NCBI GenBank assembly: GCA_041942055.1
Contig: CP145874.1
Location: forward strand, 180,001 to 212,000
Direction: 5' to 3'
Origin: Candidatus Saccharimonadota bacterium
GTDB taxonomy: Bacteria > Pseudomonadota > Gammaproteobacteria > Enterobacterales > Enterobacteriaceae
DNA length: 32,000 nucleotides
The notes below the pieces were generated by a model that worked only from the letters and a program-made list of their open reading frames with translations, ran no database searches and was not told the origin of the DNA. Both the position numbers and the translations under genes were made by a program. Each line of letters begins with the position of its first letter. The first letter of the stretch is position 1. This document shows positions 3,415 to 31,911 of the stretch, piece by piece.

Positions 3415-4137
3415 ATGTTTATTATTTCAACCCATGTTTGGCTATCTTTAATTACTTTAATTATTCTAGAAATTATATTAGGTATTGACAATATTATTTT
3501 TATTTCATTAGTAGTTGCTAAATTACCAAAAGATCAACAAAAAAAAGTTAGTCATTTAGGATTAATAGCAGCAATGTTAATACGTCTAATATTATTATAT
3601 TTTATGACTCGACTGATAAAAATTAATCAAGTACTCTTTGCTGTATTCAATTATGTTTTTACTATGCATAACATAATTTTATTAGTAGGTGGATTATTTT
3701 TAATAATAAAATCCATTGTAGAAATTATTAATTTACTTAGAGAAAATAGTAATGGAAATGAAAAAATAACCGTTTCTTATTGCTTCTCAGCAACAGTTAT
3801 TCAAATAATATTTTTAGATATTCTTTTTAGTTTTGATTCCGTAATTACAGCTGTTGGTTTGTCAAATAATATTTTGATAATGTTTACTGCTATAATCATA
3901 GCAGTGATTATTATGATGTATAGTGCATTAAAAATTTCTAAATTTATTAATCATTACCTATCATTGAAAATATTAGCATTAGCATTCTTATTTTTAGTCG
4001 GATTAACTTTGCTTCTTGAAGGATTCACAATACATATTCCAATTGGATATGTTTATTTTTCATTATTTTTTTGTATATTTGTAGAAATATTAAATATATT
4101 AACTAATAATAGAAAATCAAAGATTAACACACGTTAA
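3415..4137 (+). CDS. ygdQ: TerC-family integral membrane protein, YgdQ-like
   Basis: The 240-aa polytopic protein has LEIILGIDNIIFISLVVAKLP, LLVGGLFLI.KS, IIFLDILFSFDSVITAVGLS and HIPIGYVYFSLFF, colinear with E. coli YgdQ. It follows mutH as in E. coli. Confidence 0.8.
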   Translation: MFIISTHVWLSLITLIILEIILGIDNIIFISLVVAKLPKDQQKKVSHLGLIAAMLIRLILLYFMTRLIKINQVLFAVFNYVFTMHNIILLVGGLFLIIKSIVEIINLLRENSNGNEKITVSYCFSATVIQIIFLDILFSFDSVITAVGLSNNILIMFTAIIIAVIIMMYSALKISKFINHYLSLKILALAFLFLVGLTLLLEGFTIHIPIGYVYFSLFFCIFVEILNILTNNRKSKINTR

Positions 4138-4141
4138 GAAT

Positions 4142-5110
4142 TTAATATTCTATAACTACAGAAACAGTATCGGAATAACTTCCAGATGGAAGATCTATTT
4201 GTGTAGGATTTATTATAGCATTATAATATATAATATTTGGAACTCCAGTTCCAATAAATCTTTTTTTACTGTTTTTATTCCAAATAAGATTACTATCTGG
4301 ATGATAGATATTATATTGAATATAATGATTATTATCATCACTTAATCGACGCCATTGGTCTTTAATATGGTTACCCTCAGTAAACCAAATATTATAATTT
4401 TCTTGTTTTGTACAACTTACAGTCATATTAAGTTTTAAAGGTTTAAATTGATTGACTAAGGCATGACTCCCAAAATCAATCTCAGGAAGATTATTAATCA
4501 CACAATCTTTATTTATTATAGCGTGAAGTGTTATGAAGGTTGAACCTTTACCATTCCAAGATGATAGACATACCAAACTCCCCAATCTACAAATAGAATA
4601 TTCCCAATTAATTTGAACTATATCTTGATATACTCCTGCTCGTACATTAGCATTTGGAAGAGTTTTGATATAAAGAGGAACTCTAGAATTAGTAGAGGAA
4701 AATATCATAGATATTAGGTTAAGACTTTTATAATCAATGGAATTTCCAATTTTATTTGCATATTGATAATTTTTATCAGGATAAATCATATAAGGAATAA
4801 AATCTCCAGATCCATTTATATTTTTTAGTTGCATGTTATAAGATGTTCCAATAATCTTACCTTTAATCTTATTATGTGTTAGTAATGTCATACTTAGTCC
4901 CGAACATGCCAGTCCGGAATTACCCTCTGCTTTTATGCTACCGTTTAAAACCGCAAAAGAGCTAGAGTTTCCTAACTCTACTTTTCCATCTGATAACCAA
5001 CAATTAGCTAAGACCCAATTAAAAAATAATAATTTTATTACCAATGCTAATGTAAAAAAATAACCGTGTTTTTTGATGATATGAGTACAAAAAAAATTAT
5101 TTACTGACAA
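4142..5110 (-). CDS. Pilus tip subunit/adhesin, CsuE-like: a two-domain protein with a C-terminal spore-coat-U (SCPU) pilin domain
   Basis: 322 aa. The N-terminus has a hydrophobic signal-like segment (FFTLALVIKLLFFNWVLA). The C-terminal ~130 aa show the SCPU pattern (C...FG...C...Y.IY...W...G.G) and end in SGSYSDTVSVVIEY. It is the last gene of the operon and overlaps the usher stop by 10 nt. The only usable start is TTG at 5110..5108. Confidence 0.7.
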   Translation of the reverse strand: MSVNNFFCTHIIKKHGYFFTLALVIKLLFFNWVLANCWLSDGKVELGNSSSFAVLNGSIKAEGNSGLACSGLSMTLLTHNKIKGKIIGTSYNMQLKNINGSGDFIPYMIYPDKNYQYANKIGNSIDYKSLNLISMIFSSTNSRVPLYIKTLPNANVRAGVYQDIVQINWEYSICRLGSLVCLSSWNGKGSTFITLHAIINKDCVINNLPEIDFGSHALVNQFKPLKLNMTVSCTKQENYNIWFTEGNHIKDQWRRLSDDNNHYIQYNIYHPDSNLIWNKNSKKRFIGTGVPNIIYYNAIINPTQIDLPSGSYSDTVSVVIEY

Positions 5111-7473
5111 ACTTGTTTTCCTAAATTAAATATCCCATTAGATCTTTTGGTTTTTAACTTTACATTACAAGTTTTTCCATTATCTAATCGAGTAACTATG
5201 AGTTCAGAAGATTTTTTGATTCCTTCACCTTCAAGCCAAACTTGTCCATCCCAACCTAACCAAGTGATTTTTGATGTTCCTTTTACTTGAACTAAACTAC
5301 CGGAGGGAAAAAAATTACCTTTTTTATCAACTACCTGGAATAGAAGTGCATGTAATTTATGAAGATTAAACTCTATTAAACAACCACTATGTTCTTTAAT
5401 TGGTAATTTTTTGGTGGTTTCGGCTGGAATTACATCAATGGGTAATTTAATAGGATCTATATCGAATCTTGATCGATACAATCCAGTAACTGTTGGAACT
5501 AGTAAATGTCCAAACTTATTAGTTTTACCTACAAACTGATTTTCATAATATACTGGAATATTACTATATCCTTTAGTAGATATTAATGCAAAAGCATCAT
5601 GAATAGGTTGAGTTAGATATATATGTCCTGCCATATTAACTACTGACCCCTCTAATTCAATCCACGTATTTGGATTAGTGTATAAATCCCCAAAAATTCC
5701 CAATCGATTTTCAAAATATGGATTTTTCCAAATAAAATTAGCTTCATGATATCTATTGTATTTTCCATTTTGAGAAATAATTATATTCCATGCTATTTCT
5801 CCATGATCATTACTTGTAATTTTATTACTCCATATTTGACGTAAATTAAGGTGATCATTTTTATCAATATTTGATGAAAACGATGTATTACCATTATTAC
5901 CCCAAGACTTTAGAGGTAGAGTTAACATGAATTGAGCATTCAAACTATGATGGTTTTTATTTTGACGTAGAAAAGTCCATAAAGTTATACTTTTCGGTAA
6001 TGTAACACTATAAGATAAATTAATTAATCGATTGGTATTACCATTATTATTCCATGTCTTTATTAATCCTAAGCTAAAATTTCCATAATTTCCAAAGTTT
6101 ATACTTCCAGTAAGATTATTTTCATGACTATTGGCTGTTAAAGATTTATAATTACTACTATGTAAAGCATTTAAACTAAAGTATGTATTATTATAATTAT
6201 AACCAATAGTTATTTTTTGATTCATGTTTTTTTGAATTAAAAACGATGATGATTTATGAAAATAACTGTTAATATTATAATTACTTCCCATCCACGATAT
6301 TTTAACAACTCCTAACCTCATGGGTTTGATATCGGCACCAAGGCCATAATTTAGAAAATGTCGACTACCTTGCATTTGACCTTCTAAAGTCAACCATGAT
6401 TTTATTCCATGACGAATTATGCCACTAGTTATTAGATGACTATAATCCATTGAATTTATACCGTAATTTTTACGTAATAGTCCTAATGATAGACTAAAAT
6501 TAGTTAATCCAGGCTTTAAAAGTTCACTAGTAACATAAAAGGGTATGATACTAACTTTTTTATTTTTTTGAGAAATGATAACTATTTTAGCTTTACTAGC
6601 ACCTTGTAAATTAGGAATAGTATCTATTATAGTAAAAGGTCCAGGATTAATTTTAGTAGACATCATTTTCGAATGATTAATATAAAGATCAATTTTGCTT
6701 GGTTCAAATGTCTGACCATAAAAATTAGGTAATGGATATGTAATGACATCTGGAGATAATGAAAAATTACGAAAGAATTTAATTCCACCTATTTTTAGCG
6801 GAATCGATCCAAATAACATATCGGTAGTAGTATCTCCTATTATATAACTGACTAGATGTTTTTCATCATTTATATCAAAATGAGTATCATATCGTATATA
6901 AGACGGTTTAGATAGTTTATTACTCCAGCTACTGGTATTGGACAAAACACCCCATTTACTAAATATCCGTAATTCTGACCAAAAATTTACAGATCCAATT
7001 TGATTATATGAAGAGAGTTGTTTATGATAATAGAAATTATAATTTAATAACCATCCAAAATTACTCTGACTTGGTATATTTTTTTCGGGTAGATTGTTTT
7101 GATTATTAAAGAATATTTTTTGATTTGGAAACCAAAAATATGGTACATTAATAAGTAATCGTTGTGATTGAATATCATATTGAACATGTACATGTTTTAG
7201 TTGATCTATAGCAAAAACCTTGAAAATTTTAATCTGATTTGGAATAAGAAGTCCAGCATCCTTCAGTTCTTTCAATCTAATATAATAATGACCATTTTTA
7301 AAATTAACACCAATAATTTTTCCTGTATCCATTCCATTAATAACTAAGTCTAGATAAAGTTGATTAGTCGATCTTATTATTAACGAATCGCCTAATACCA
7401 GGTGTATTGATAGTAAAAATATAATTGATACAAGAATAAATTTAATCGTTTTAATAAACTTATATCCATTCAA
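5101..7473 (-). CDS. Outer-membrane fimbrial usher, CsuD-like
   Basis: 790 aa with a signal peptide (ILVSIIFLLSIHLVLG). It has the N-terminal LYLDLVINGMDTG...YIRLKELKDAGL segment typical of ushers and a long beta-rich, Asn/Ser/Tyr/Gly-rich barrel region. It sits between chaperone and tip genes. The start is TTG at 7473..7471; there is no in-frame ATG or GTG before codon 48. Confidence 0.85.
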   Translation of the reverse strand: MNGYKFIKTIKFILVSIIFLLSIHLVLGDSLIIRSTNQLYLDLVINGMDTGKIIGVNFKNGHYYIRLKELKDAGLLIPNQIKIFKVFAIDQLKHVHVQYDIQSQRLLINVPYFWFPNQKIFFNNQNNLPEKNIPSQSNFGWLLNYNFYYHKQLSSYNQIGSVNFWSELRIFSKWGVLSNTSSWSNKLSKPSYIRYDTHFDINDEKHLVSYIIGDTTTDMLFGSIPLKIGGIKFFRNFSLSPDVITYPLPNFYGQTFEPSKIDLYINHSKMMSTKINPGPFTIIDTIPNLQGASKAKIVIISQKNKKVSIIPFYVTSELLKPGLTNFSLSLGLLRKNYGINSMDYSHLITSGIIRHGIKSWLTLEGQMQGSRHFLNYGLGADIKPMRLGVVKISWMGSNYNINSYFHKSSSFLIQKNMNQKITIGYNYNNTYFSLNALHSSNYKSLTANSHENNLTGSINFGNYGNFSLGLIKTWNNNGNTNRLINLSYSVTLPKSITLWTFLRQNKNHHSLNAQFMLTLPLKSWGNNGNTSFSSNIDKNDHLNLRQIWSNKITSNDHGEIAWNIIISQNGKYNRYHEANFIWKNPYFENRLGIFGDLYTNPNTWIELEGSVVNMAGHIYLTQPIHDAFALISTKGYSNIPVYYENQFVGKTNKFGHLLVPTVTGLYRSRFDIDPIKLPIDVIPAETTKKLPIKEHSGCLIEFNLHKLHALLFQVVDKKGNFFPSGSLVQVKGTSKITWLGWDGQVWLEGEGIKKSSELIVTRLDNGKTCNVKLKTKRSNGIFNLGKQVCQ

Positions 7474-7476
7474 ATT

Positions 7477-8232
7477 TTAAAAATCTGGTATTAATTGTTG
7501 AAACTGTAGATTATCATTAACTCGAGCCACTAACAATCCTTTAGGAATAAGTATAGAAAGAGGCATAAATATTTCCGATTCAGGTAAAATATATCCAAAA
7601 AATCCATTATTAATTAGATATTCGTTTTTTCCATTTAAAAACATAATATCATTAACTTTAGCATGAACTAACCCTTTATTATGAATAATTAATAATTTTT
7701 TACCATTTTTTGTTATTATGCGATAATATAATCTAGGTTGAGTTGCTGTTTGAATATGTTCTTGAGAATTCGGTTTAATCCAAATATTCTTACCATTTAT
7801 AAATAATGGAATGGAATAACGCATTTTAAAGTTTAAACCAATTTGATTTTTAGTTATAGATTGAGGAATCTCATCAAGAAGTATGCGATAGCTCCACTCC
7901 TTGTCTTGAGGAGGACTTATAATTTTTATTAATCGAATTAGTTGCTTGTTTTTAGGTAAAATTTCTACCATTGGAGGACTAACAATTATTTCATGTTGTT
8001 CTAAAAGTTGATTATCATAGTTCTTTTGTTTCCAATTAAAAACTCTAATTTGCATTAAAATAGAATTATCACTATGGTTTTCTAACCATAATGAAGCAGC
8101 ATTTTGATCAGCTTCAATAACTGGATCAAGCGGCCAAATTAATATTGATGAATTAGCAGCTAGAAGTGAATAATTGCTTAAATATGATAAAATCACTACT
8201 AACAAATAATATAGTTTTTTTTTTGTCTGCAT
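7477..8232 (-). CDS. Periplasmic pilus chaperone (PapD fold), CsuC-like
   Basis: 251 aa with a signal peptide ending LLA/ANS. Motifs: ILIWPLDPVIEADQNAASLWLENHSD.SILMQIRVFNW, IVSPPMVEILPKNKQLIRL, and SYRILLDEIPQ, the pattern of archaic/sigma-class chaperones. Confidence 0.85.
   Translation of the reverse strand: MQTKKKLYYLLVVILSYLSNYSLLAANSSILIWPLDPVIEADQNAASLWLENHSDNSILMQIRVFNWKQKNYDNQLLEQHEIIVSPPMVEILPKNKQLIRLIKIISPPQDKEWSYRILLDEIPQSITKNQIGLNFKMRYSIPLFINGKNIWIKPNSQEHIQTATQPRLYYRIITKNGKKLLIIHNKGLVHAKVNDIMFLNGKNEYLINNGFFGYILPESEIFMPLSILIPKGLLVARVNDNLQFQQLIPDF
8215..8224 (-). repeat. A10 homopolymer (T10 on the plus strand) in codons 3-6 of the pilus chaperone gene
   Basis: The minus strand reads ATG CAG ACA AAA AAA AAA CTA, encoding MQTKKKL. 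Confidence 0.95.
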
Positions 8233-8248
8233 AATTTGATGTATTTTA

Positions 8249-8815
8249 TTAATAAATAATAGTCATTGTTACTATATCTTCATATTGACCAGGTTCGGGT
8301 AAAATACTAGAATTAAATAAACGTGCATAAATATAATATATGTTGTTTACCATTCCTAATGTGATAAGAGATTTACTCTTACCACCATTAATATCATTTC
8401 CCCAAATTATACTATGTGCAGCATCTTGAAATAATTGATAGCGCAACATTTTATTTCCATAATTTTTTTTAAGTAATCGTCCATGACTTATATTTCCAAC
8501 CATATTTCTTCCACTATCTAATGCTAAATTCACAGTAATACCTGGCGTACACTTTAATACTAAATTATAACTATAAGTAGTATCTATAGGTTGTTGAATA
8601 GAAGTAATATTACCAAAATTAATAGCATTTAGATGTGTTGAATTTTTATTCAATTCACAACCTTTAACTATCTTAGCATAGATATTAAAATTTCTAGTTT
8701 TAGAATAAGTTTGGTCATCTGCTTGCAGAGTCATTACAAATAGGAAGTATATTAAAACAATACCTATTTTTAATAGAAAAGATAAATATCTTATTATATA
8801 ATTTGTAAATTCCAT
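8249..8815 (-). CDS. SCPU-domain minor pilin (CsuA/CsuB-like)
   Basis: 188 aa with an N-terminal hydrophobic leader ending TLQA/DD. It has the SCPU pattern: KGCEL...INFGNI...LKCTPG...LRYQLFQD...IWG...G and the C-terminal GQYEDIVTMTIIY. Confidence 0.75.
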   Translation of the reverse strand: MEFTNYIIRYLSFLLKIGIVLIYFLFVMTLQADDQTYSKTRNFNIYAKIVKGCELNKNSTHLNAINFGNITSIQQPIDTTYSYNLVLKCTPGITVNLALDSGRNMVGNISHGRLLKKNYGNKMLRYQLFQDAAHSIIWGNDINGGKSKSLITLGMVNNIYYIYARLFNSSILPEPGQYEDIVTMTIIY

Positions 8816-8845
8816 ATCTCGTTATGTAGATTTTAACGTAAGATG

Positions 8846-8875
8846 GAATGGATTCCAAATTATTGGAATCCATTC
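8846..8875 (-). promoter_or_regulatory. Perfect 13-bp stem / 4-nt loop hairpin in the 148-bp spacer between the major and minor pilin genes
   Basis: GAATGGATTCCAA (8846..8858), loop ATTA (8859..8862), then TTGGAATCCATTC (8863..8875). The arms are exact reverse complements. No U/T run follows on either strand, so this is not a canonical intrinsic terminator. Confidence 0.5.
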
Positions 8876-8963
8876 AATACATTCTATCCATCTAGTAGTG
8901 ATCATGAGATAATAATCATTATCAGCATATGAATAATGATATTATTTATTAATTAATTATTAT

Positions 8964-9464
8964 CTACCAACTAACTGTAACAGTTACTGTATCAGTATAA
9001 GTACCTGCTTTCACTGCTGCTTCTTGTCTTGGTATACGCCCATAAATAATTAAACTCGTTTCTTTTCCTATACCAGAAGCTTCAGATAATTCACTGTCCC
9101 AGAGATGTGTATGGTTTTCATCTTTATACAAATCATATTTGATATAATCACCTGATTCTGCTTTCATACGTCTTTGTTTTCCATCTGGTTGTGATCCATT
9201 ATTCAAACTTATATGATAAGGTAATCCTTTTGTACAAATCAATCCTATAGATCCTCCTGTTGCCGTTGATCTACCATCAATCACATTCTTAAGATTCGGA
9301 TGTTCTCCGAAGTCTATCTTACCAAAATTCAGGAGGGTTCCTCGTGTTACTTCACAACCCTTATCGATAATTATTTGTACATCTAAATTATTTTCTATTT
9401 GTCCACTTGCATAAACATAAGCAGAAAACAACATAATTGAGATTATTGACAATACTTTTATCAT
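8964..9464 (-). CDS. SCPU-domain major pilin (CsuA/B-like), first gene of the operon
   Basis: I trimmed the ORF-track TTG start at 9509 to ATG at 9464..9462. That ATG is preceded by AAGGA 9 nt upstream and gives a clean signal peptide MIKVLSIISIMLFSAYVYA/SGQ. The mature part is a textbook SCPU domain: DKGCEV...LNFGKIDFG...GGSIGLICTKG.PYHISL..G...RRM......IKYDLYKD......W....G.G....IYGRIP.Q......GTYTDTVTVTVSW. Confidence 0.8.
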   Translation of the reverse strand: MIKVLSIISIMLFSAYVYASGQIENNLDVQIIIDKGCEVTRGTLLNFGKIDFGEHPNLKNVIDGRSTATGGSIGLICTKGLPYHISLNNGSQPDGKQRRMKAESGDYIKYDLYKDENHTHLWDSELSEASGIGKETSLIIYGRIPRQEAAVKAGTYTDTVTVTVSW

Positions 9465-9536
9465 ATTGACTATCCTTTTAGTTATGTCATCATATATGGA
9501 TATGATCAATGAATGATATAAATGTTTATAGATTAA

Positions 9537-9564
9537 AGTGTAAAAGAACTAGATGATTTGTCAA
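9537..9564 (-). promoter_or_regulatory. Candidate sigma70 promoter for the pilus operon
   Basis: On the minus strand: TTGACA (9564..9559), a 16-nt spacer, then TACACT (9542..9537). It lies in the 110-bp gap between the hflC stop and the pilin ATG. In DNA this AT-rich such matches occur by chance, although a perfect TTGACA is less trivial. Confidence 0.25.
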
Positions 9565-9574
9565 ATTGAAGTAG

Positions 9575-10507
9575 TTATTCTTTTTTTATATTTTTATTAA
9601 AATATGGGATCATATAACGTAAAAAAGGATGATTAATATCTAAAATAATTAAATCTTTATTAGATTGAAAGATTTTTTTATAAGCGTGTAAAGTACGAAC
9701 AAAACTATAAAAATTAGTATCTTGATTTAAATAAATTGCAAATAGTTTAGCTACAAATGCATCAGCTTCTCCATGTATAATATGCGCTTGTCTTTCAGCT
9801 TCTGCTAAAATAGATATTACTTCATAATCTGCAGCTGCACGAATTTTTTCCGCTTCTTCTTTACCTTGAGAACGATGAAGACGAGCATCTGCATCCCGTT
9901 CGGCACGCATTCTATTATATATAGCATCTGAAACTTCAGGAGGTAAATTGATTTTTTTGATACGTACATCTATCACTTGAATACCTAAGATATTTTGTGG
10001 ACTTTTCATTCCTATTTGATGCGCATTAATAATACTCTCATTTAATTTTTCACGTAAGATTGAAGTTAATTTTCCTCGGCAATCAGTTACAATATCTTTG
10101 ACATTTAAACGTCCTATTTCGGAACGAAGTCTATCACTAAATATTTTTCTAATAAAATTTTCTACTTTAGCAATATCTCCTCCAGCAGTACTAACATAAA
10201 AACGATTAAAATCAGTAATACGCCATTTGATATATGAATCCACAATTACATCTTTCTTTTCCTTGGTTACAAATCTATCAGTTTGATTTTCCATAGTTTG
10301 AATACGGGCATCTAAAGATTTTACGGTTTCAATTAATGGATTTTTAAAATGCAATCCCGGTAATAATATTATTGTATGATGATCAATATCACGTAAAACT
10401 TTACCAAAACGTAATAAAATCCCTCGTTGACCTTCTTGGATAATAAAACAGCATGAGTAGAGTAATATTATTATAGGAAACAAAATTGCTAAAAAATATT
10501 TACGCAT
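9575..10507 (-). CDS. hflC: FtsH protease modulator HflC (SPFH/band-7 family)
   Basis: 310 aa, colinear with E. coli HflC (EGQRGILLRFGKV, PGLHFK.P, IDVRIKKINLP.EVS.AIY.RM.AER). The start ATG overlaps the hflK stop as TAATG. Confidence 0.9.
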   Translation of the reverse strand: MRKYFLAILFPIIILLYSCCFIIQEGQRGILLRFGKVLRDIDHHTIILLPGLHFKNPLIETVKSLDARIQTMENQTDRFVTKEKKDVIVDSYIKWRITDFNRFYVSTAGGDIAKVENFIRKIFSDRLRSEIGRLNVKDIVTDCRGKLTSILREKLNESIINAHQIGMKSPQNILGIQVIDVRIKKINLPPEVSDAIYNRMRAERDADARLHRSQGKEEAEKIRAAADYEVISILAEAERQAHIIHGEADAFVAKLFAIYLNQDTNFYSFVRTLHAYKKIFQSNKDLIILDINHPFLRYMIPYFNKNIKKE

Positions 10508-11667: not shown

Positions 11668-11740
11668 TTTTATTACACCAAATATCACGGAACTTAATAA
11701 TTATTTATTAGTACCCTGAACATTAGAAGAGATAAATTAT

Positions 11741-14342: not shown

Positions 14343-14709
14343 GGAAATCTTCTTTAGATTATATTAGGTTATAAACAAACATACTTTGGTTTCAATACTT
14401 TTCATTTTTAGAAATACTACAAATTTATGATAATAATTCAAGCCAACTTCAACCAGATTAGGTAATGATAAAAAGTGAGAAAGTTTTTTCATGTCATTTA
14501 ATTATTATAAAAAATACCTTTACATAAAAAAATATTATCGAATAAACATTCTAGTTTGCAAGGATTAATTTGATAACCATCCAAATAATGAATAATTATT
14601 TGTTTGTGAAAGCTACTAATAATTGAATTGAGGAAATTATGAGTACAATTGATTTAAGCACGATTGACGGTAATATAATTTTTGATACCTTTCATAACAT
14701 ATATCAATT

Positions 14710-14785
14710 TGGAGCGGGAAACGAGATTCGAACTCGCGACCCTAACCTTGGCAAGGTTATGCTCTACCAACTGAGCTATTCCCGC
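14710..14785 (-). tRNA. glyV: tRNA-Gly, anticodon GCC, with encoded CCA
   Basis: The reverse complement is GCGGGAATAGCTCAGTTGGTAGAGCATAACCTTGCCAAGGTTAGGGTCGCGAGTTCGAATCTCGTTTCCCGCTCCA. It forms a cloverleaf with anticodon loop CTTGCCAAG and is nearly identical to E. coli tRNA-Gly3. This is the only GC-rich non-coding patch in the window. Confidence 0.95.
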
Positions 14786-22162: not shown

Positions 22163-22432
22163 CTAGTAGTTATTATTTTTTATTTGGTACTGGTGGATCA
22201 TATCAAAGCTGCTGAAATTTAAAGGATGACATTGATGAACTATGCATTTGATAGTTAAAACATTTCTTTGTATGAGACCAAATGTACTGATAGCTACTAG
22301 AATACTACTATACTGAGAGCAAGTAGGTCTAAAACGACATCGTGGACTTATAAACACACTAAGAAAAATTTTTGGATAACTGTAAATAATAGTGATTAAG
22401 GATTTTTTGACGCTAAAAGATAATAATTCCAT
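22163..22432 (-). CDS. yidD: Membrane protein insertion efficiency factor YidD
   Basis: 89 aa with ISPRCRFRPTCSQY and a CHPL motif, matching E. coli YidD (LGPHCRFTPTCSSY...CHPL). It lies between rnpA and yidC and overlaps the rnpA 3' end by 37 nt. The rest of the protein is quite diverged. Confidence 0.7.
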   Translation of the reverse strand: MELLSFSVKKSLITIIYSYPKIFLSVFISPRCRFRPTCSQYSSILVAISTFGLIQRNVLTIKCIVHQCHPLNFSSFDMIHQYQIKNNNY

Positions 22433-22773
22433 AATTGTTGAATTTTTTCCATTATGATTTTATTTTTCATTAAAGATATGGTTTTTTTGATTATTATAAT
22501 GAAATCCATTGATGGTAATTTATTTTGAGTTAAACGAAAACTTTCACGAATTAATCTTTTTATCCTATTGCGTTGATACGAATATTTAACATTATGTTTA
22601 CTAATAATAAATCCAAGACGAGCATATTTATAACAATTAGGATAATATAACATAATAATATGTGATTTATTTATCTTTATAGATTGTCGCAGAACTAAGT
22701 GAAATTCTTTTGACTTTAACAAACGTAATTTTCTTGGAAAATGATAAGAATTCACTATTCTAATTGAATCCAA
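22396..22773 (-). CDS. rnpA: RNase P protein component (start TTG at 22773, or GTG at 22755 as in E. coli)
   Basis: FPRKLRLLKSKEF, RLGFIISKHNVK.S..RNRIKRLIRESFRL (RNR motif), and LPSMDFIII.KK. Confidence 0.85.
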   Translation of the reverse strand: MDSIRIVNSYHFPRKLRLLKSKEFHLVLRQSIKINKSHIIMLYYPNCYKYARLGFIISKHNVKYSYQRNRIKRLIRESFRLTQNKLPSMDFIIIIKKTISLMKNKIIMEKIQQLWNYYLLASKNP

Positions 22774-22774
22774 A

Positions 22775-22915
22775 TCAATTGGATACAGTTAGACGAGTAC
22801 GTCCTTTAGCACGTCTTCGTGCCAAAATATGACGACCATTTTTAGTTTTCATTCTACTTCTAAATCCGTGAGAACGATTTCGTTTTAGTACAGATGGTTG
22901 AAAAGTACGTTTCAT
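22775..22915 (-). CDS. rpmH: 50S ribosomal protein L34
   Basis: Not in the ORF track (46 aa). The reverse complement translates to [46 protein letters not shown] followed by TGA, nearly identical to E. coli L34. Confidence 0.92.
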
Positions 22916-23085
22916 TATAGATATAATAACCATATTTGATAAAAAATTATAATGACTATTCTAACAATTATTAGAATTGTAGTCAATTTGGTTAATTAGG
23001 TTTTAAAAAGGTATTTATCTATTATAAAATAAGTATATTATTTATTTTCAATAGACATTATTATTTATAACTCATTACCATTCAC

Positions 23086-24186
23086 ATGCAATTCATTATT
23101 CAACGCGAAATTTTATTTAAAAAATTAAAAAAGATAAGTAGAATTATTAGCAAGAAGCCCCTGTTACCTATTGTCAATAATGTTCTTATGAAAATCACTT
23201 ACAATAAATTATTGTTAACTGTAACCAATTTGGAAATGGAAATTTCTACAGATATTATTTTAACCGAACAACATACAACTGGATGTAGCACGGTTTCAGC
23301 TAAAAAGCTATTAGATATTTGTCAATATTTACCAGAAAAAGCTAATATAAATATTTCCTTAATAAAGAGTAGAATTATTATATATTCAGGACACAGTAAA
23401 TTTTATCTTTCTACATTACCAGTAAGTAGTTTTCCAAATTTAGAGAACTGGAAAAACCCGAGAGAATTTTCTATCCCAGCTAATGTAATGAAACATCTTC
23501 TGGAAGCTACTCATTTTTCTATGTCATATCAAGATGTTAGGTATTATCTAAATGGTTTATTATTGGAGACTCAAGAAAATTTATTATCTTGTGTAGCTAC
23601 AGATGGACACCGAATAGCAATTTGTAGAATGGAAATAATTGAAATGATACCTACCTATTCAGTTATTTTACCACGTAAATATATTATAGAATTATTACGT
23701 TTCCTGAAAGAAGAGGATTCTTTACTTAAAATCCAAATTGGAAATAATAATATTCGAATACATTTAAAGGATTATATTTTTACTTCAAGGTTAATTGATG
23801 GAAAATTTCCAAATTATAGCCACGTATTACATAAAACTTATGATAAAATTATCATCATGAATCGTGAAATCTTAAAACAATCTTTTTCAAGGATGTCCAT
23901 TTTATGTAACCCTAAATTAAATGAAGTTCATCTTCATATTAAAAAACATGAGTTAAAAATCACTACTAGTAATTTATCCCATGAAGAAGCTGAAGAAATA
24001 TTGCCCATTTCTTATGAAGGTGCTGATATACAGATCAATTTGAATGTCAATTATATACTTGAAGTTTTATATGTTTTAAAATGTGATACAATCAAATTGT
24101 CACTGTTAAACTCAATATCTAGTATTCAAATTAATGACATTGCCAGTGATTCTGCTGTTTATGTAATAATGCCCATTAAGTTCTAA
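23086..24186 (+). CDS. dnaN: DNA polymerase III beta sliding clamp
   Basis: 366 aa, colinear with E. coli DnaN end to end (LEMEIS, STLP.SSFPNLE.W, FSMS.QDVRYYLNG.L.ET, VATDGHR.A.C, RLIDGKFPNY, EEAEEIL...Y.GA...I..NV.Y.LEVL..LKC, VYVIMP). Confidence 0.95.
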   Translation: MQFIIQREILFKKLKKISRIISKKPLLPIVNNVLMKITYNKLLLTVTNLEMEISTDIILTEQHTTGCSTVSAKKLLDICQYLPEKANINISLIKSRIIIYSGHSKFYLSTLPVSSFPNLENWKNPREFSIPANVMKHLLEATHFSMSYQDVRYYLNGLLLETQENLLSCVATDGHRIAICRMEIIEMIPTYSVILPRKYIIELLRFLKEEDSLLKIQIGNNNIRIHLKDYIFTSRLIDGKFPNYSHVLHKTYDKIIIMNREILKQSFSRMSILCNPKLNEVHLHIKKHELKITTSNLSHEEAEEILPISYEGADIQINLNVNYILEVLYVLKCDTIKLSLLNSISSIQINDIASDSAVYVIMPIKF

Positions 24187-24204
24187 TTAAGATTTAGATC
24201 TTAA

Positions 24205-26649
<2,445 letters not shown>

Positions 26650-28178: not shown

Positions 28179-29273
28179 TTAAAATCCTGCATTTAAACTT
28201 GCCTTAATAAATATATCTAACTTACCATTTAAAATATCCTGTATATCATGGCTTTCTACTCCAGTACGTAAATCTTTAATGCGTGAATTATCAAGTATAT
28301 AAGAACGTATTTGTCTTCCCCATCCAATATCGGATTTATTTTCTTCAATCTCTTTTTTTTCAGTATTTTTCTTTTTTATTGCAAGTTCATATAATTTGGC
28401 TTTCATTTGTTTTAATGCTTGATCTTTATTTCGATGTTGTGAACGTCCATTTTGACATTGAGTAACAACTCCAGTAGGCAAATGAGTAATGCGTACTGCA
28501 GATTCGGTACGATTAACATGCTGTCCACCTGCTCCAGATGCCCGATAAACGTCAATTCTTAAATCACTCGTATTAATGTTAATTTGAATGTTATCCTGTA
28601 CTTCAGGATATACAAAAACTGAACTAAACGAAGTATGTCTTTTTCCGGTAGAATCAAATGGACTTTTACGTACTAGACGATGAATTCCAGTTTCAGTTCG
28701 TAACCAACCAAAAGCATACTTACCTAAAACTCGTACAGTACATGATTTAATTCCAGCTATATCTCCTAGAGATTCAGAAATTATTTCGGTTGTAAATCCT
28801 TTATTTTCAGCCCATCTTAAATACATACGCATTAATATGTTGGCCCAATCTTGAGCTTCTATTCCTCCTGAACCTGCTTGAATATCAATATAACAATTAG
28901 CATAATCGTTTGGTTTACAAAACATATTGTTAAATTCTAATTGTACTATTTTTTCTTCTATTATATTCATCTCACAGATAATGTCCTTTAAGATATCATC
29001 ATCTTTATCTTCTACAATATCTAGCAAATTAGACAGATTGATTATTTCAAGATTTAATTCATCTAAATTCAATATTAGATTTTCTATAACAGCACGTTCT
29101 TTAGTTAAAGATTGTGCATAGTTAATATTTTTCCAGATCGAGGTGGTTTCTAATGCTTTATTTATATTGATCAACTTTATTTTATAATAATTATAGTTTT
29201 TATTTTTCTTTAGGAGATTAACTCTGGTTATTAGATGGTTAATTCTATCTTTAAAAAAATGAAGATCTAACAT
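28179..29273 (-). CDS. prfB: Peptide chain release factor 2, encoded in one continuous frame
   Basis: 364 aa with [18 protein letters not shown], the SPF motif (RKSPFDS), the GGQ motif ([25 protein letters not shown]), and [17 protein letters not shown]. There is no in-frame TGA near codon 26. Confidence 0.95.
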
Positions 29274-31107: not shown

Positions 31108-31911
31108 TTATTTATAAAATTTATTAAGAGCTTCTTGAAAATGCTCTAGTAAATCCCAGTACACATTTTGTAAATCATTACCTTTACTCCACCATCGAAC
31201 TATCAAATTTAAAGAAGATACTCCTATTTCATGTAATTTTATAGTGATTTCTCGTTCTTTTATAACACGTTCATCTGCTAACATTATCTCATATAAAATT
31301 TTTTTCAAACTATTAAGATTTGTATTAGGAGCCACTTTGAGTATGATCTCGTTACGACGTATAGGTTCACGAGAATAATTAATAATATTGCCTGCAATCA
31401 CTTTACCATTAGGGATAACTATTGTTTTTCCATCAGCTGAAAGTAATGTAGTGGAAAAAATCTGTATTTGTTGTACTATACCTGTGATACCACCTAGATC
31501 AACGTATTCACCTACACGTAAGGGTCTAAATATTACAAGTAATACTCCTGCCGCCAAATTTGAAAGAGATCCTTGTAATGCTAAACCTACAGCCAAACCG
31601 GCTGCACCTAAAACGGTAATAATAGATGCGGTTTGTACCCCAACACGATTCAGTGCTGCAGTAACTGCAAAAGTTATAATGCTATATCGTAATAGCATAG
31701 ACAAAAAGTCTGCTACAGTAATATCTAAATGTCTAGCTAAAAAAATTTTATTAATATTTTTTGCAATATAATTGGCAAGACTCATTCCAATACATATAAT
31801 TGCTATAGCAGATATTATATTTTTTATATAACTTAATAATAATGAATGATTCTGTATCATCCAATTACATGCATTTTGTATAATATTTATTACATCATTA
31901 GTAATTTCCAT
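31108..31911 (-). CDS. mscS: Small-conductance mechanosensitive channel MscS, about 19 aa shorter at the C-terminus than E. coli MscS
   Basis: 267 aa with LLLSY..NI..A.AII..G, ATVADFLS.L.RY.II.F...AAL.RVGVQTAS.I.VLGAAGLAVGLALQGSLSNLAAGVLLV.FRP.R.GEYVDLGG..G.V..IQIFSTT, PNGK.IAGNIIN.SREP.RRNE, and LQNVYWD.LE. Confidence 0.9.
   Translation of the reverse strand: MEITNDVINIIQNACNWMIQNHSLLLSYIKNIISAIAIICIGMSLANYIAKNINKIFLARHLDITVADFLSMLLRYSIITFAVTAALNRVGVQTASIITVLGAAGLAVGLALQGSLSNLAAGVLLVIFRPLRVGEYVDLGGITGIVQQIQIFSTTLLSADGKTIVIPNGKVIAGNIINYSREPIRRNEIILKVAPNTNLNSLKKILYEIMLADERVIKEREITIKLHEIGVSSLNLIVRWWSKGNDLQNVYWDLLEHFQEALNKFYK

Follow-up and report, generated by a model that had tools for sequence, protein, structure and literature searches.

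Among the described chaperone-usher systems of the archaic (sigma) class, the Csu operon of Acinetobacter baumannii (csuA/B-A-B-C-D-E) encodes three stalk pilins followed by a periplasmic chaperone, an outer-membrane usher and a two-domain tip subunit, and its pilins, which belong to the SCPU family, have a donor strand at the N-terminus and a single pair of Cys. The CupE system of Pseudomonas aeruginosa (cupE1-6) belongs to the same class, follows the same six-gene plan and is under the control of the PprAB two-component system; it is set beside the studied locus here by class and gene plan. Six-gene sigma-fimbrial clusters are also present in the free-living Enterobacterales Edaphovirga cremea, Yersinia spp. 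and Limnobaculum. The locus studied here is a five-gene operon assigned to this class, located in a stretch of 32,000 nucleotides (contig CP145874.1, positions 180,001 to 212,000; hereafter the window) from the genome (456,754 bp) of Candidatus Dasytiphilus stammeri, which lives in the bacteriomes of the beetle Dasytes virens. It appears to be a functional, vertically inherited archaic pilus operon whose product would attach the symbiont to surfaces in an extracellular phase, and the probability of this statement as a whole is estimated at roughly 0.6.

Obligate bacteriome symbionts with genomes below 0.6 Mb normally shed their surface-adhesion machinery. Here a complete adhesive pilus takes up about 1% of the 457 kb, even though dnaA, recF, hfq and, according to the published genome study of these symbionts (PMC11191362), peptidoglycan synthesis have been lost. 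Dasytiphilus was described in that study as a tyrosine-provisioning, intracellular symbiont in the bacteriomes of dasytine beetles, and the 2024 release comprises 20 genomes of 437-601 kb (PMC11191362). Pili, fimbriae, ushers and adhesion are all unmentioned in its main text, and the pilus genes are represented only by KEGG rows (cupE, fimD, fimC) under 'Two-component system' in the supplementary orthogroup table, where the pilins and the tip carry the label cupE (PMC11191362). The pilus genes are thus already annotated, both in GenBank and in that table, but have so far been left uninterpreted. The usher encoded in the window is 100% identical to a protein of a Candidatus Dasytiphilus stammeri metagenome-assembled genome; the genome of the D. 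plumbeus symbiont has 456,731 bp.

Composition and class of the operon

Five co-oriented open reading frames (ORFs) occupy the minus strand between hflC and a convergent TerC/YgdQ gene (Table 1), and none of them contains an internal stop codon. The spacing is operon-like, with 16 nt between the second pilin and chaperone genes, 3 nt between the chaperone and usher genes, and an overlap of 10 nt between the usher and tip genes. At the stop probability of 0.079 per codon given by the base composition, an open run of 790 codons has a probability of about 7e-29, and the longest open runs in the three antisense (plus-strand) frames across the operon are 64-73 codons. The operon is therefore confirmed as a real observation and not a product of chance. 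A preliminary description of this stretch, made from the letters alone, had reported five tightly packed, co-oriented frames free of stops with only short antisense frames opposite them, and had named SCPU, PapD-like and usher families for their products; the spacing from the second pilin to the tip, the lengths of the antisense runs and the profile matches given below all agree with it. Its product for the first pilin gene was, however, too long.

For the major pilin, the Pfam model PF05229 (SCPU) was matched at 1e-31, and structures were matched in the Protein Data Bank (PDB) at 5e-19 (8cio) and 2e-11 (CsuA/B, 7zl4). The product contains a donor-strand-like N-terminal segment (NLDVQIII) and two conserved Cys, is the orthologue of Edaphovirga pilin 1 and was found in all 10 intact operons. 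Although the frame is open further upstream, M16 (9464) is most likely the start codon rather than position 9509, as the orthologues begin there. The second pilin was matched by PF05229 at 3e-24, and, at 152 bits compared with 48-53 bits for pilins 1 and 2, it is the orthologue of Edaphovirga pilin 3. A signal peptide is plausible, from reading the sequence, at the N-terminus of all five products. In the pilins, a stretch of alternating hydrophobic residues precedes the first Cys, as in the example SGQIENNLDVQIIIDKGC directly after a putative cleavage site at VYA, and the two Cys per pilin occupy the same positions in all strains and in Edaphovirga.

The chaperone was matched by PapD_N (3e-19) and is far closer to CsuC (5d6h, 1e-31) than to PapD (6e-3); all operon-bearing strains have an intact copy. 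The usher was matched by PF00577 (1e-27) over residues 268-689, whereas PapC_C at 1e-4 reached only 22.4 bits, below the cut-off of 27; PapC_C is recorded in the usher orthologues P0006-P0009. Its sequence aligns over its full length with the ushers of Edaphovirga and Yersinia (36-37% identity), and no PDB entry was matched by sequence. The GenBank usher product (P0001) has 743 aa, begins at the internal M48 and has no signal peptide, so that its start codon has probably been misannotated; the start at the TTG of position 7473 is favoured, since it restores the signal peptide and matches the N-termini of the orthologues.

For the tip protein, PF05229 was matched in two stretches (6e-34), and CsuE (6fjy_B) was matched at 1.2e-15 over residues 45-322. 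The protein lacks a donor strand and has six invariant Cys. An AlphaFold (AF2) model built from nine symbiont sequences is of moderate quality (mean predicted local distance difference test, pLDDT, 73.4; template modelling score 0.41-0.45), and in a Foldseek search with it CsuE ranked first (E=1.1e-16), followed by CfaE, FimH, FocH and PapG. Identity between the tip and CsuE is only about 25%. Finger 1 of CsuE (LALA) aligns with LSMTLLTH, a partly hydrophobic and nearly invariant segment with a pLDDT below 50. The finger-2 loop of CsuE (IVGIGV) sits in a 16-residue insertion, whereas the tip of the window lacks this insertion and has a short loop flanked by Cys, as does that of Edaphovirga. 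No NCBIfam model was matched by the pilins or the tip, and a search for tip homologues, restricted to word-sharing candidates, returned only Dasytiphilus proteins.

Table 1. Positions of the operon genes, putative signals and neighbouring features in the window
Feature	Position	Strand	Remarks
TerC/YgdQ-family membrane protein	3415..4137	+	convergent downstream boundary of the slot; NCBIfam and Pfam TerC matches
Two-domain tip adhesin, CsuE-like	4142..5110	-	322 aa; last gene; predicted N-terminal binding domain ~37-198, C-terminal SCPU pilin domain 199-322
Outer-membrane usher, CsuD-like	5101..7473	-	790 aa; TTG start at 7473; predicted signal peptide MNGYKFIKTIKFILVSIIFLLSIHLVLG, cleaved before DS
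Periplasmic chaperone, CsuC-like	7477..8232	-	251 aa; predicted signal peptide ending NYSLLA, cleaved before ANSS
Second (minor) SCPU pilin, CsuB position	8249..8815	-	predicted signal peptide; two conserved Cys
Probable remnant of pilin type 2	~8800-8859		20 aa aligned
Hairpin	8846..8875	-	perfect 13-bp stem, no T-tract; 148-bp spacer 3' of major pilin gene
Major pilin, CsuA/B-like	8964..9464	-	166 aa from M16; ORF open back to 9509; predicted signal peptide MIKVLSIISIMLFSAYVYA, cleaved before SGQ
Putative sigma70-like promoter	9537..9564	-	TTGACA-16 nt-TACACT; hflC-pilin spacer, ~70 nt upstream of pilin start
hflC	9575..10507	-	upstream boundary of the slot; NCBIfam HflC 2e-131; adjoins the operon in every strain
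tRNA-Gly (GCC)	14710..14785		sole tRNA, ~5 kb from the operon
rnpA	22396..22773		
dnaN	23086..24186		
prfB	28179..29273	-	uninterrupted 364-aa ORF; RF2 model matched end to end
Antisense ORF	31388..31771	+	127 codons, within a 267-aa gene (31108..31911)

Assignment to the archaic (sigma, Csu/CupE-type) class is supported, as the chaperone resembles CsuC more than PapD, the tip is CsuE-like by sequence and by predicted fold, and the major pilin is of the CsuA/B type; all component families are known ones. The operon has the features of the class, namely SCPU subunits, a CsuC-type chaperone of PapD fold, an usher with barrel/plug and C-terminal domains, a two-domain tip, and pilins with signal peptides, a putative donor strand and a Cys pair. 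A classical pilus of the Pap or Fim type was considered and is ruled out by the SCPU subunits and by the chaperone scores. That the locus encodes an archaic pilus and that it is under selection is hardly in doubt.

In comparison with Csu, the gene order (pilins, chaperone, usher, two-domain tip) is the same, and both have SCPU pilins with the N-terminal donor strand and the single Cys pair described above. The claim of the preliminary description that the Csu architecture is reproduced accordingly holds for gene order and families; it does not hold for gene content, since the window has five genes against six in Csu, and two stalk pilins (types 1 and 3) against three, with a single one in the Listrus clade of symbionts. 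The number of stalk pilins is a matter of the canonical layout and not of class membership. There is no BfmRS-type regulator, as known for Csu, near the operon, and no PprAB-like regulator is evident at it. The host, an obligate intracellular insect symbiont with a genome of 0.44-0.60 Mb, is also unlike Acinetobacter.

The nearest relatives of every component are found in the clusters of Edaphovirga, Yersinia and Limnobaculum, with identities of 36-37% for the usher, 48% for the tip and 42% for the chaperone. The three pilins of the Edaphovirga-type clusters correspond one-to-one to the symbiont pilin types, and the loop architecture of the tip is shared. In contrast, the Edaphovirga operon lies in a pqiAB-rsmF context unrelated to the symbiont slot, and the genes of the symbionts show a shift towards AT and, depending on the clade, lack pilin 2, pilin 3 or both through loss.

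Inheritance and selection

The locus was compared with those of ten other symbiont strains. The slot is the same in all ten, and the operon is intact in nine of them. Three pilin genes are present in the symbiont of D. niger (L004), two in those of D. aeratus (L001), D. alpigradus (L002), Psilothrix viridicoerulea (L003), Dasytastes bicolor (L005) and Dasytastes sp. 01 (L008), and one in those of Listrus sp. 00 (L006), sp. 06 (L007) and sp. 09 (L010), while 'Dasytes' lineellus (L011) has only a relic. In the 10 strains with an operon, the window included, which represent three clades out of the symbiont's four lineages, the gene order is mutL-miaA-(hfq)-hflK-hflC-[pilins-chaperone-usher-tip]-(lysA)-TerC-mutH-sppA-gapA-valS, with lysA between the tip gene and TerC in the Dasytastes clade. 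In a neighbour-joining tree of ushers the symbionts are monophyletic in 200/200 bootstraps, and the Dasytes, Dasytastes and Listrus sub-clades, each with 200/200, mirror the host clades; the nearest outgroups are Yersinia, Edaphovirga and Limnobaculum.

The composition of the pilus genes (GC 0.279; GC at third codon positions, GC3, 0.155) is close to that of 18 host genes (0.290 and 0.153), and the relative synonymous codon usage of the two sets is correlated with r=0.94. Neither an integrase nor an insertion sequence (IS) element was found in the flanks of the operon, nor any direct repeat longer than 37 nt at 70% identity, and the nearest tRNA is the distant one listed in Table 1. The preliminary description had noted the missing mobility genes, tRNA and repeats and the host-like AT-richness, and had argued from them for long residence rather than recent acquisition. 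That argument is strengthened by the comparison between strains, because the shared slot, the monophyly of the ushers, the host-like codon usage and a relic in the same slot in lineellus together point to vertical inheritance and long residence. These comparisons show that the ancestor shared by the symbionts of at least the Dasytes, Dasytastes and Listrus clades already carried the operon. A recent horizontal acquisition, or a genomic island, is ruled out by the same slot, the usher tree and the codon usage, and by the lack of repeats, integrase and adjoining tRNA.

Reciprocal scores reveal three ancestral pilin types, which match the three pilins of Edaphovirga. All three are kept in D. niger, types 1 and 3 in the window and three other strains of the Dasytes clade, types 1 and 2 in the Dasytastes clade and type 1 alone in the Listrus clade. 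Type 3, the second pilin of the window, is accordingly intact in all five strains of the Dasytes clade and absent from the Dasytastes and Listrus clades. A relic of the middle pilin in the window aligns over 20 aa with pilin 2 of D. niger (65% identity, E=1e-4) and is a probable remnant of the lost type 2. These losses suggest that the adaptor pilins are dispensable, if pili are made, and they amount to a series of natural deletions in which the archaic pathway can be studied.

In all 10 operon strains, again including the window, four genes are full length: those of the major pilin, chaperone, usher and tip. Even the smallest genome (440,755 bp) encodes a full-length tip of 320 aa, and its usher and chaperone are listed in the published table (PMC11191362). 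The ratio of nonsynonymous to synonymous substitution rates (dN/dS, omega) was estimated by the Nei-Gojobori method (NG86, additive implementation, 1000 codon bootstraps) for the four shared pilus genes and for seven flanking core genes. Omega for pilus and core genes, respectively, was 0.41 and 0.45 between the window and D. aeratus, 0.36 and 0.50 between the window and D. alpigradus, 0.34 and 0.44 between D. alpigradus and D. niger, 0.32 and 0.30 between Dasytastes bicolor and Dasytastes sp. 01, and 0.36 and 0.40 between Listrus sp. 00 and sp. 06; since NG86 values are biased at about 28% GC, the absolute figures are unreliable, and it is only in relation to the flanking genes that they can be trusted. 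In each pair, none of the 1000 bootstraps of the four-gene pilus omega reached 1. By gene, omega was 0.12-0.63 for the major pilin, 0.30-0.51 for the chaperone, 0.35-0.42 for the usher and 0.22-0.32, the lowest, for the tip. Within the tip, identity is higher in the N-terminal binding domain than in the C-terminal pilin domain in every comparison, that with Edaphovirga included (0.88/0.74, 0.61/0.52 and 0.55/0.51). The operon is thus shown to be under purifying selection that equals in strength the selection on core genes next to it, and that is strongest on the tip binding domain. Decay of the locus in sister strains, with omega near 1, had been named in the preliminary description as the outcome that would speak against a maintained pilus; the intact operons and the pilus omega of 0.32-0.41, comparable with core genes, point the other way.

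In 'D.' lineellus, for which the published table lists no pilus genes (PMC11191362), 921 non-coding bp lie between hflC and lysA (L011, 9982-10902). They include a 151-residue usher fragment (52% identity to Dasytastes bicolor, E=1e-36) and a tip fragment corresponding to its C-terminal third (E=2e-24); stops and frameshifts interrupt both, and the longest open run has 62 codons. The usher fragment retains 78% nucleotide identity with Dasytastes bicolor, compared with 94% for the adjoining end of hflC. The relic shows that the operon was once present in this strain, that it erodes and is deleted when selection stops, and that this lineage can do without it.

Possible role of the pilus

By analogy with the family, the five precursors would be exported through the Sec pathway and processed by signal peptidase, and their conserved Cys pairs would be oxidised, likely by DsbA. 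The CsuC-like chaperone would then cap each subunit by donor-strand complementation, while the usher, inserted by the Bam machinery, would be primed by the chaperone-tip complex and would then, through donor-strand exchange, build up a polymer under the tip from the minor pilin and numerous major pilin copies. A thin fibre that ends in a binding domain of the CsuE kind is the expected product. The supporting machinery is largely listed in the published orthologue table, with secY, lepB and bamA in 20/20 strains and with rows for bamD and degP in which the pilus-bearing strains shown are listed (PMC11191362). The dsbA gene is present in 18 strains and missing solely from two Danacea strains, which also have no pilus (PMC11191362), and the surA orthogroup is likewise missing in two Danacea strains (PMC11191362, supplementary file 2). 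Disulphide-bonded pilus subunits may be a main reason for the retention of dsbA. It is likely that the pilus is actually assembled.

The fibre would attach the symbiont to host or egg surfaces in an extracellular phase on the way out of the bacteriome into the gut, to the egg surface and to the larval bacteriome. Transmission by way of the gut and egg surface was proposed in the genome study, because the symbiont was never seen in the ovaries and once in the gut, and also because a female-specific connection between bacteriome and gut exists and hatchlings rest in the opened egg (PMC11191362). Dasytiphilus was considered there to be potentially unique among bacteriome symbionts in spending a phase outside the insect (PMC11191362). 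The preliminary description, in suggesting an extracellular transmission stage or attachment during the colonisation of progeny, had arrived at the same hypothesis. An adhesive organelle under selection fits this proposed extracellular transmission, and the operon offers a concrete molecular handle on it, with the pilus-less Danacea and lineellus strains as natural comparators. A role in transmission or colonisation is given somewhat less than an even chance.

Another costly envelope appendage in a very small genome is the flagellum of Wigglesworthia glossinidia, which differs in not being a chaperone-usher pilus. In Wigglesworthia, only those extracellular cells that pass from mother to offspring express the flagella, and this role is backed by expression data and immunohistochemistry, whereas the role of the pilus here is a proposed one. 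A bolder version, which is tentative and rather unlikely, takes the Csu-type pilus as a colonisation factor that would let a bacteriome symbiont of 0.44-0.6 Mb exit the cells, adhere to the larval gut or the surface of the egg, and return to the bacteriome in each generation; the Listrus operons (one pilin, chaperone, usher and tip) would in addition be natural minimal archaic pili, for which the adaptor pilins required in Acinetobacter are dispensable. If true, no earlier case would be known, in so reduced an intracellular symbiont, of a transmission cycle that is partly external and depends on an adhesin.

Several points weigh against a functional pilus used in an extracellular phase. The gut and egg-surface route is itself a hypothesis (PMC11191362). 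By the published table, the usher is absent in 4 of the 20 strains, namely two of Danacea nigritarsis, 'D.' lineellus and the draft Listrus sp. 07, of which the Danacea strains have no pilus gene at all and Listrus sp. 07 lacks usher and tip (PMC11191362); the loss was confirmed at the locus for lineellus and is taken from the table for the others. Since the operon has been lost in Danacea and lineellus, the pilus is not universally required, and it is not indispensable for symbiosis or transmission unless the pilus-less hosts transmit their symbionts differently. In Acinetobacter, functional Csu pili require all four subunit types (PMC6003481), and most symbiont strains have just one or two stalk pilins. 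The joint loss of dsbA and pilus in Danacea is suggestive but amounts to a single evolutionary event, and dsbB is present in no strain of the orthologue table (PMC11191362), which leaves the route of DsbA re-oxidation without a candidate. To these is added the compositional bias of the omega values mentioned above.

It may alternatively be that the pilus works inside the bacteriome, where it would tether the cells to each other or to host membranes and so contribute to their position, to partition at bacteriocyte division or to biofilm-like packing. Intactness and selection serve this explanation equally well, and Csu and CupE pili mediate attachment to cell surfaces and in biofilms; a plain sigma70-type promoter with no adjoining regulator would also fit constitutive expression where most of the cells live. 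Many small-genome bacteriome symbionts, however, do without pili, and a literature search of incomplete coverage revealed no bacteriome symbiont with a reduced genome in which chaperone-usher pili or fimbriae had been reported before. As Dasytiphilus is moreover unusual in its suspected extracellular phase, and as the pilus-less Danacea and lineellus strains still inhabit bacteriomes, a role confined to the bacteriome is considered unlikely.

It is still less probable, at long odds, that the fibres form mainly a protective or mechanical coat that helps a fragile symbiont to survive outside cells, with adhesion being secondary. The SCPU domain takes its name from the spore coat protein U of Myxococcus, and in some lineages the operon has been pared down to the assembly genes and one pilin gene. 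Archaic pili are described as superelastic springs (PMC9452303). Peptidoglycan synthesis has been lost in the symbionts of D. virens, D. plumbeus, D. aeratus and Psilothrix (PMC11191362), all of which keep the operon under selection, but the strains that retain peptidoglycan keep it too. The tip binding domain, needless for a mere coat, is the best conserved part, although the tip may also be needed for the start of assembly.

That the operon is an undecayed, non-functional leftover or a recent horizontal acquisition is scarcely credible despite its loss in some strains and the piecemeal loss of minor pilins, given an omega far below 1 and at core-gene level in five independent pairs, about 5.4 kb kept open in 10 strains at a stop probability of 7.9% per codon, the lineellus relic as an example of what true decay looks like, and, for transfer, the synteny, monophyly and host-like codon usage. 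A relic or pseudogene was therefore rejected on the grounds of dN/dS, intactness and the contrast with lineellus.

Putative regulatory signals and gene losses in the window

The promoter candidate listed in Table 1 is the best-scoring minus-strand site of a scan in which promoter-like sites overall were not above chance (55 against 49 expected from shuffled sequence); the scan was not used alone, and the evidence is the conservation of this one site across clades. Both hexamers and their spacing are kept in the orthologous spacers of five strains of the Dasytes clade, and two strains of the Dasytastes clade have TTGACA-17-TACAAT at the site, the rest of the spacer having diverged. The hairpin downstream of the major pilin gene shares its stem only with the closest strain, that of D. 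aeratus, and could be an mRNA-stability element, an attenuation element or debris. A conserved attenuator was considered and is unsupported, as the stem occurs only in that closest strain, has no T-tract and sits in the debris of pilin 2.

Elsewhere in the window, dnaA, recF, hfq, hflX and the queG-amiB block are absent from their usual neighbourhoods, as the preliminary description had observed and as the gaps confirm. The spacer between rnpA and dnaN, where dnaA is missing, has 313 bp (22774-23085), and that between dnaN and gyrB, where recF is missing, has 22 bp (24187-24207). In the published supplement recF is listed for 'none' of the strains, and dnaA is not in the orthologue table (PMC11191362). 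Between miaA and hflK only 52 bp (11689-11740) remain, with hfq and hflX gone, and queG, nnr, tsaE and amiB are gone from the interval between tRNA-Gly and mutL (14343-14709). The absence of amiB from its usual place is consistent with the loss of peptidoglycan synthesis. An 86-aa hfq is kept in D. niger (L004, 2923-3183), and nnr and tsaE are still present in several strains; the retention of these three genes in some strains shows that erosion of this neighbourhood is ongoing and lineage-specific.

A programmed +1 frameshift is typical of bacterial prfB. Here prfB is a single uninterrupted frame, so the frameshift is seemingly absent. The antisense ORF of 127 codons (Table 1) is the only long one of the window.

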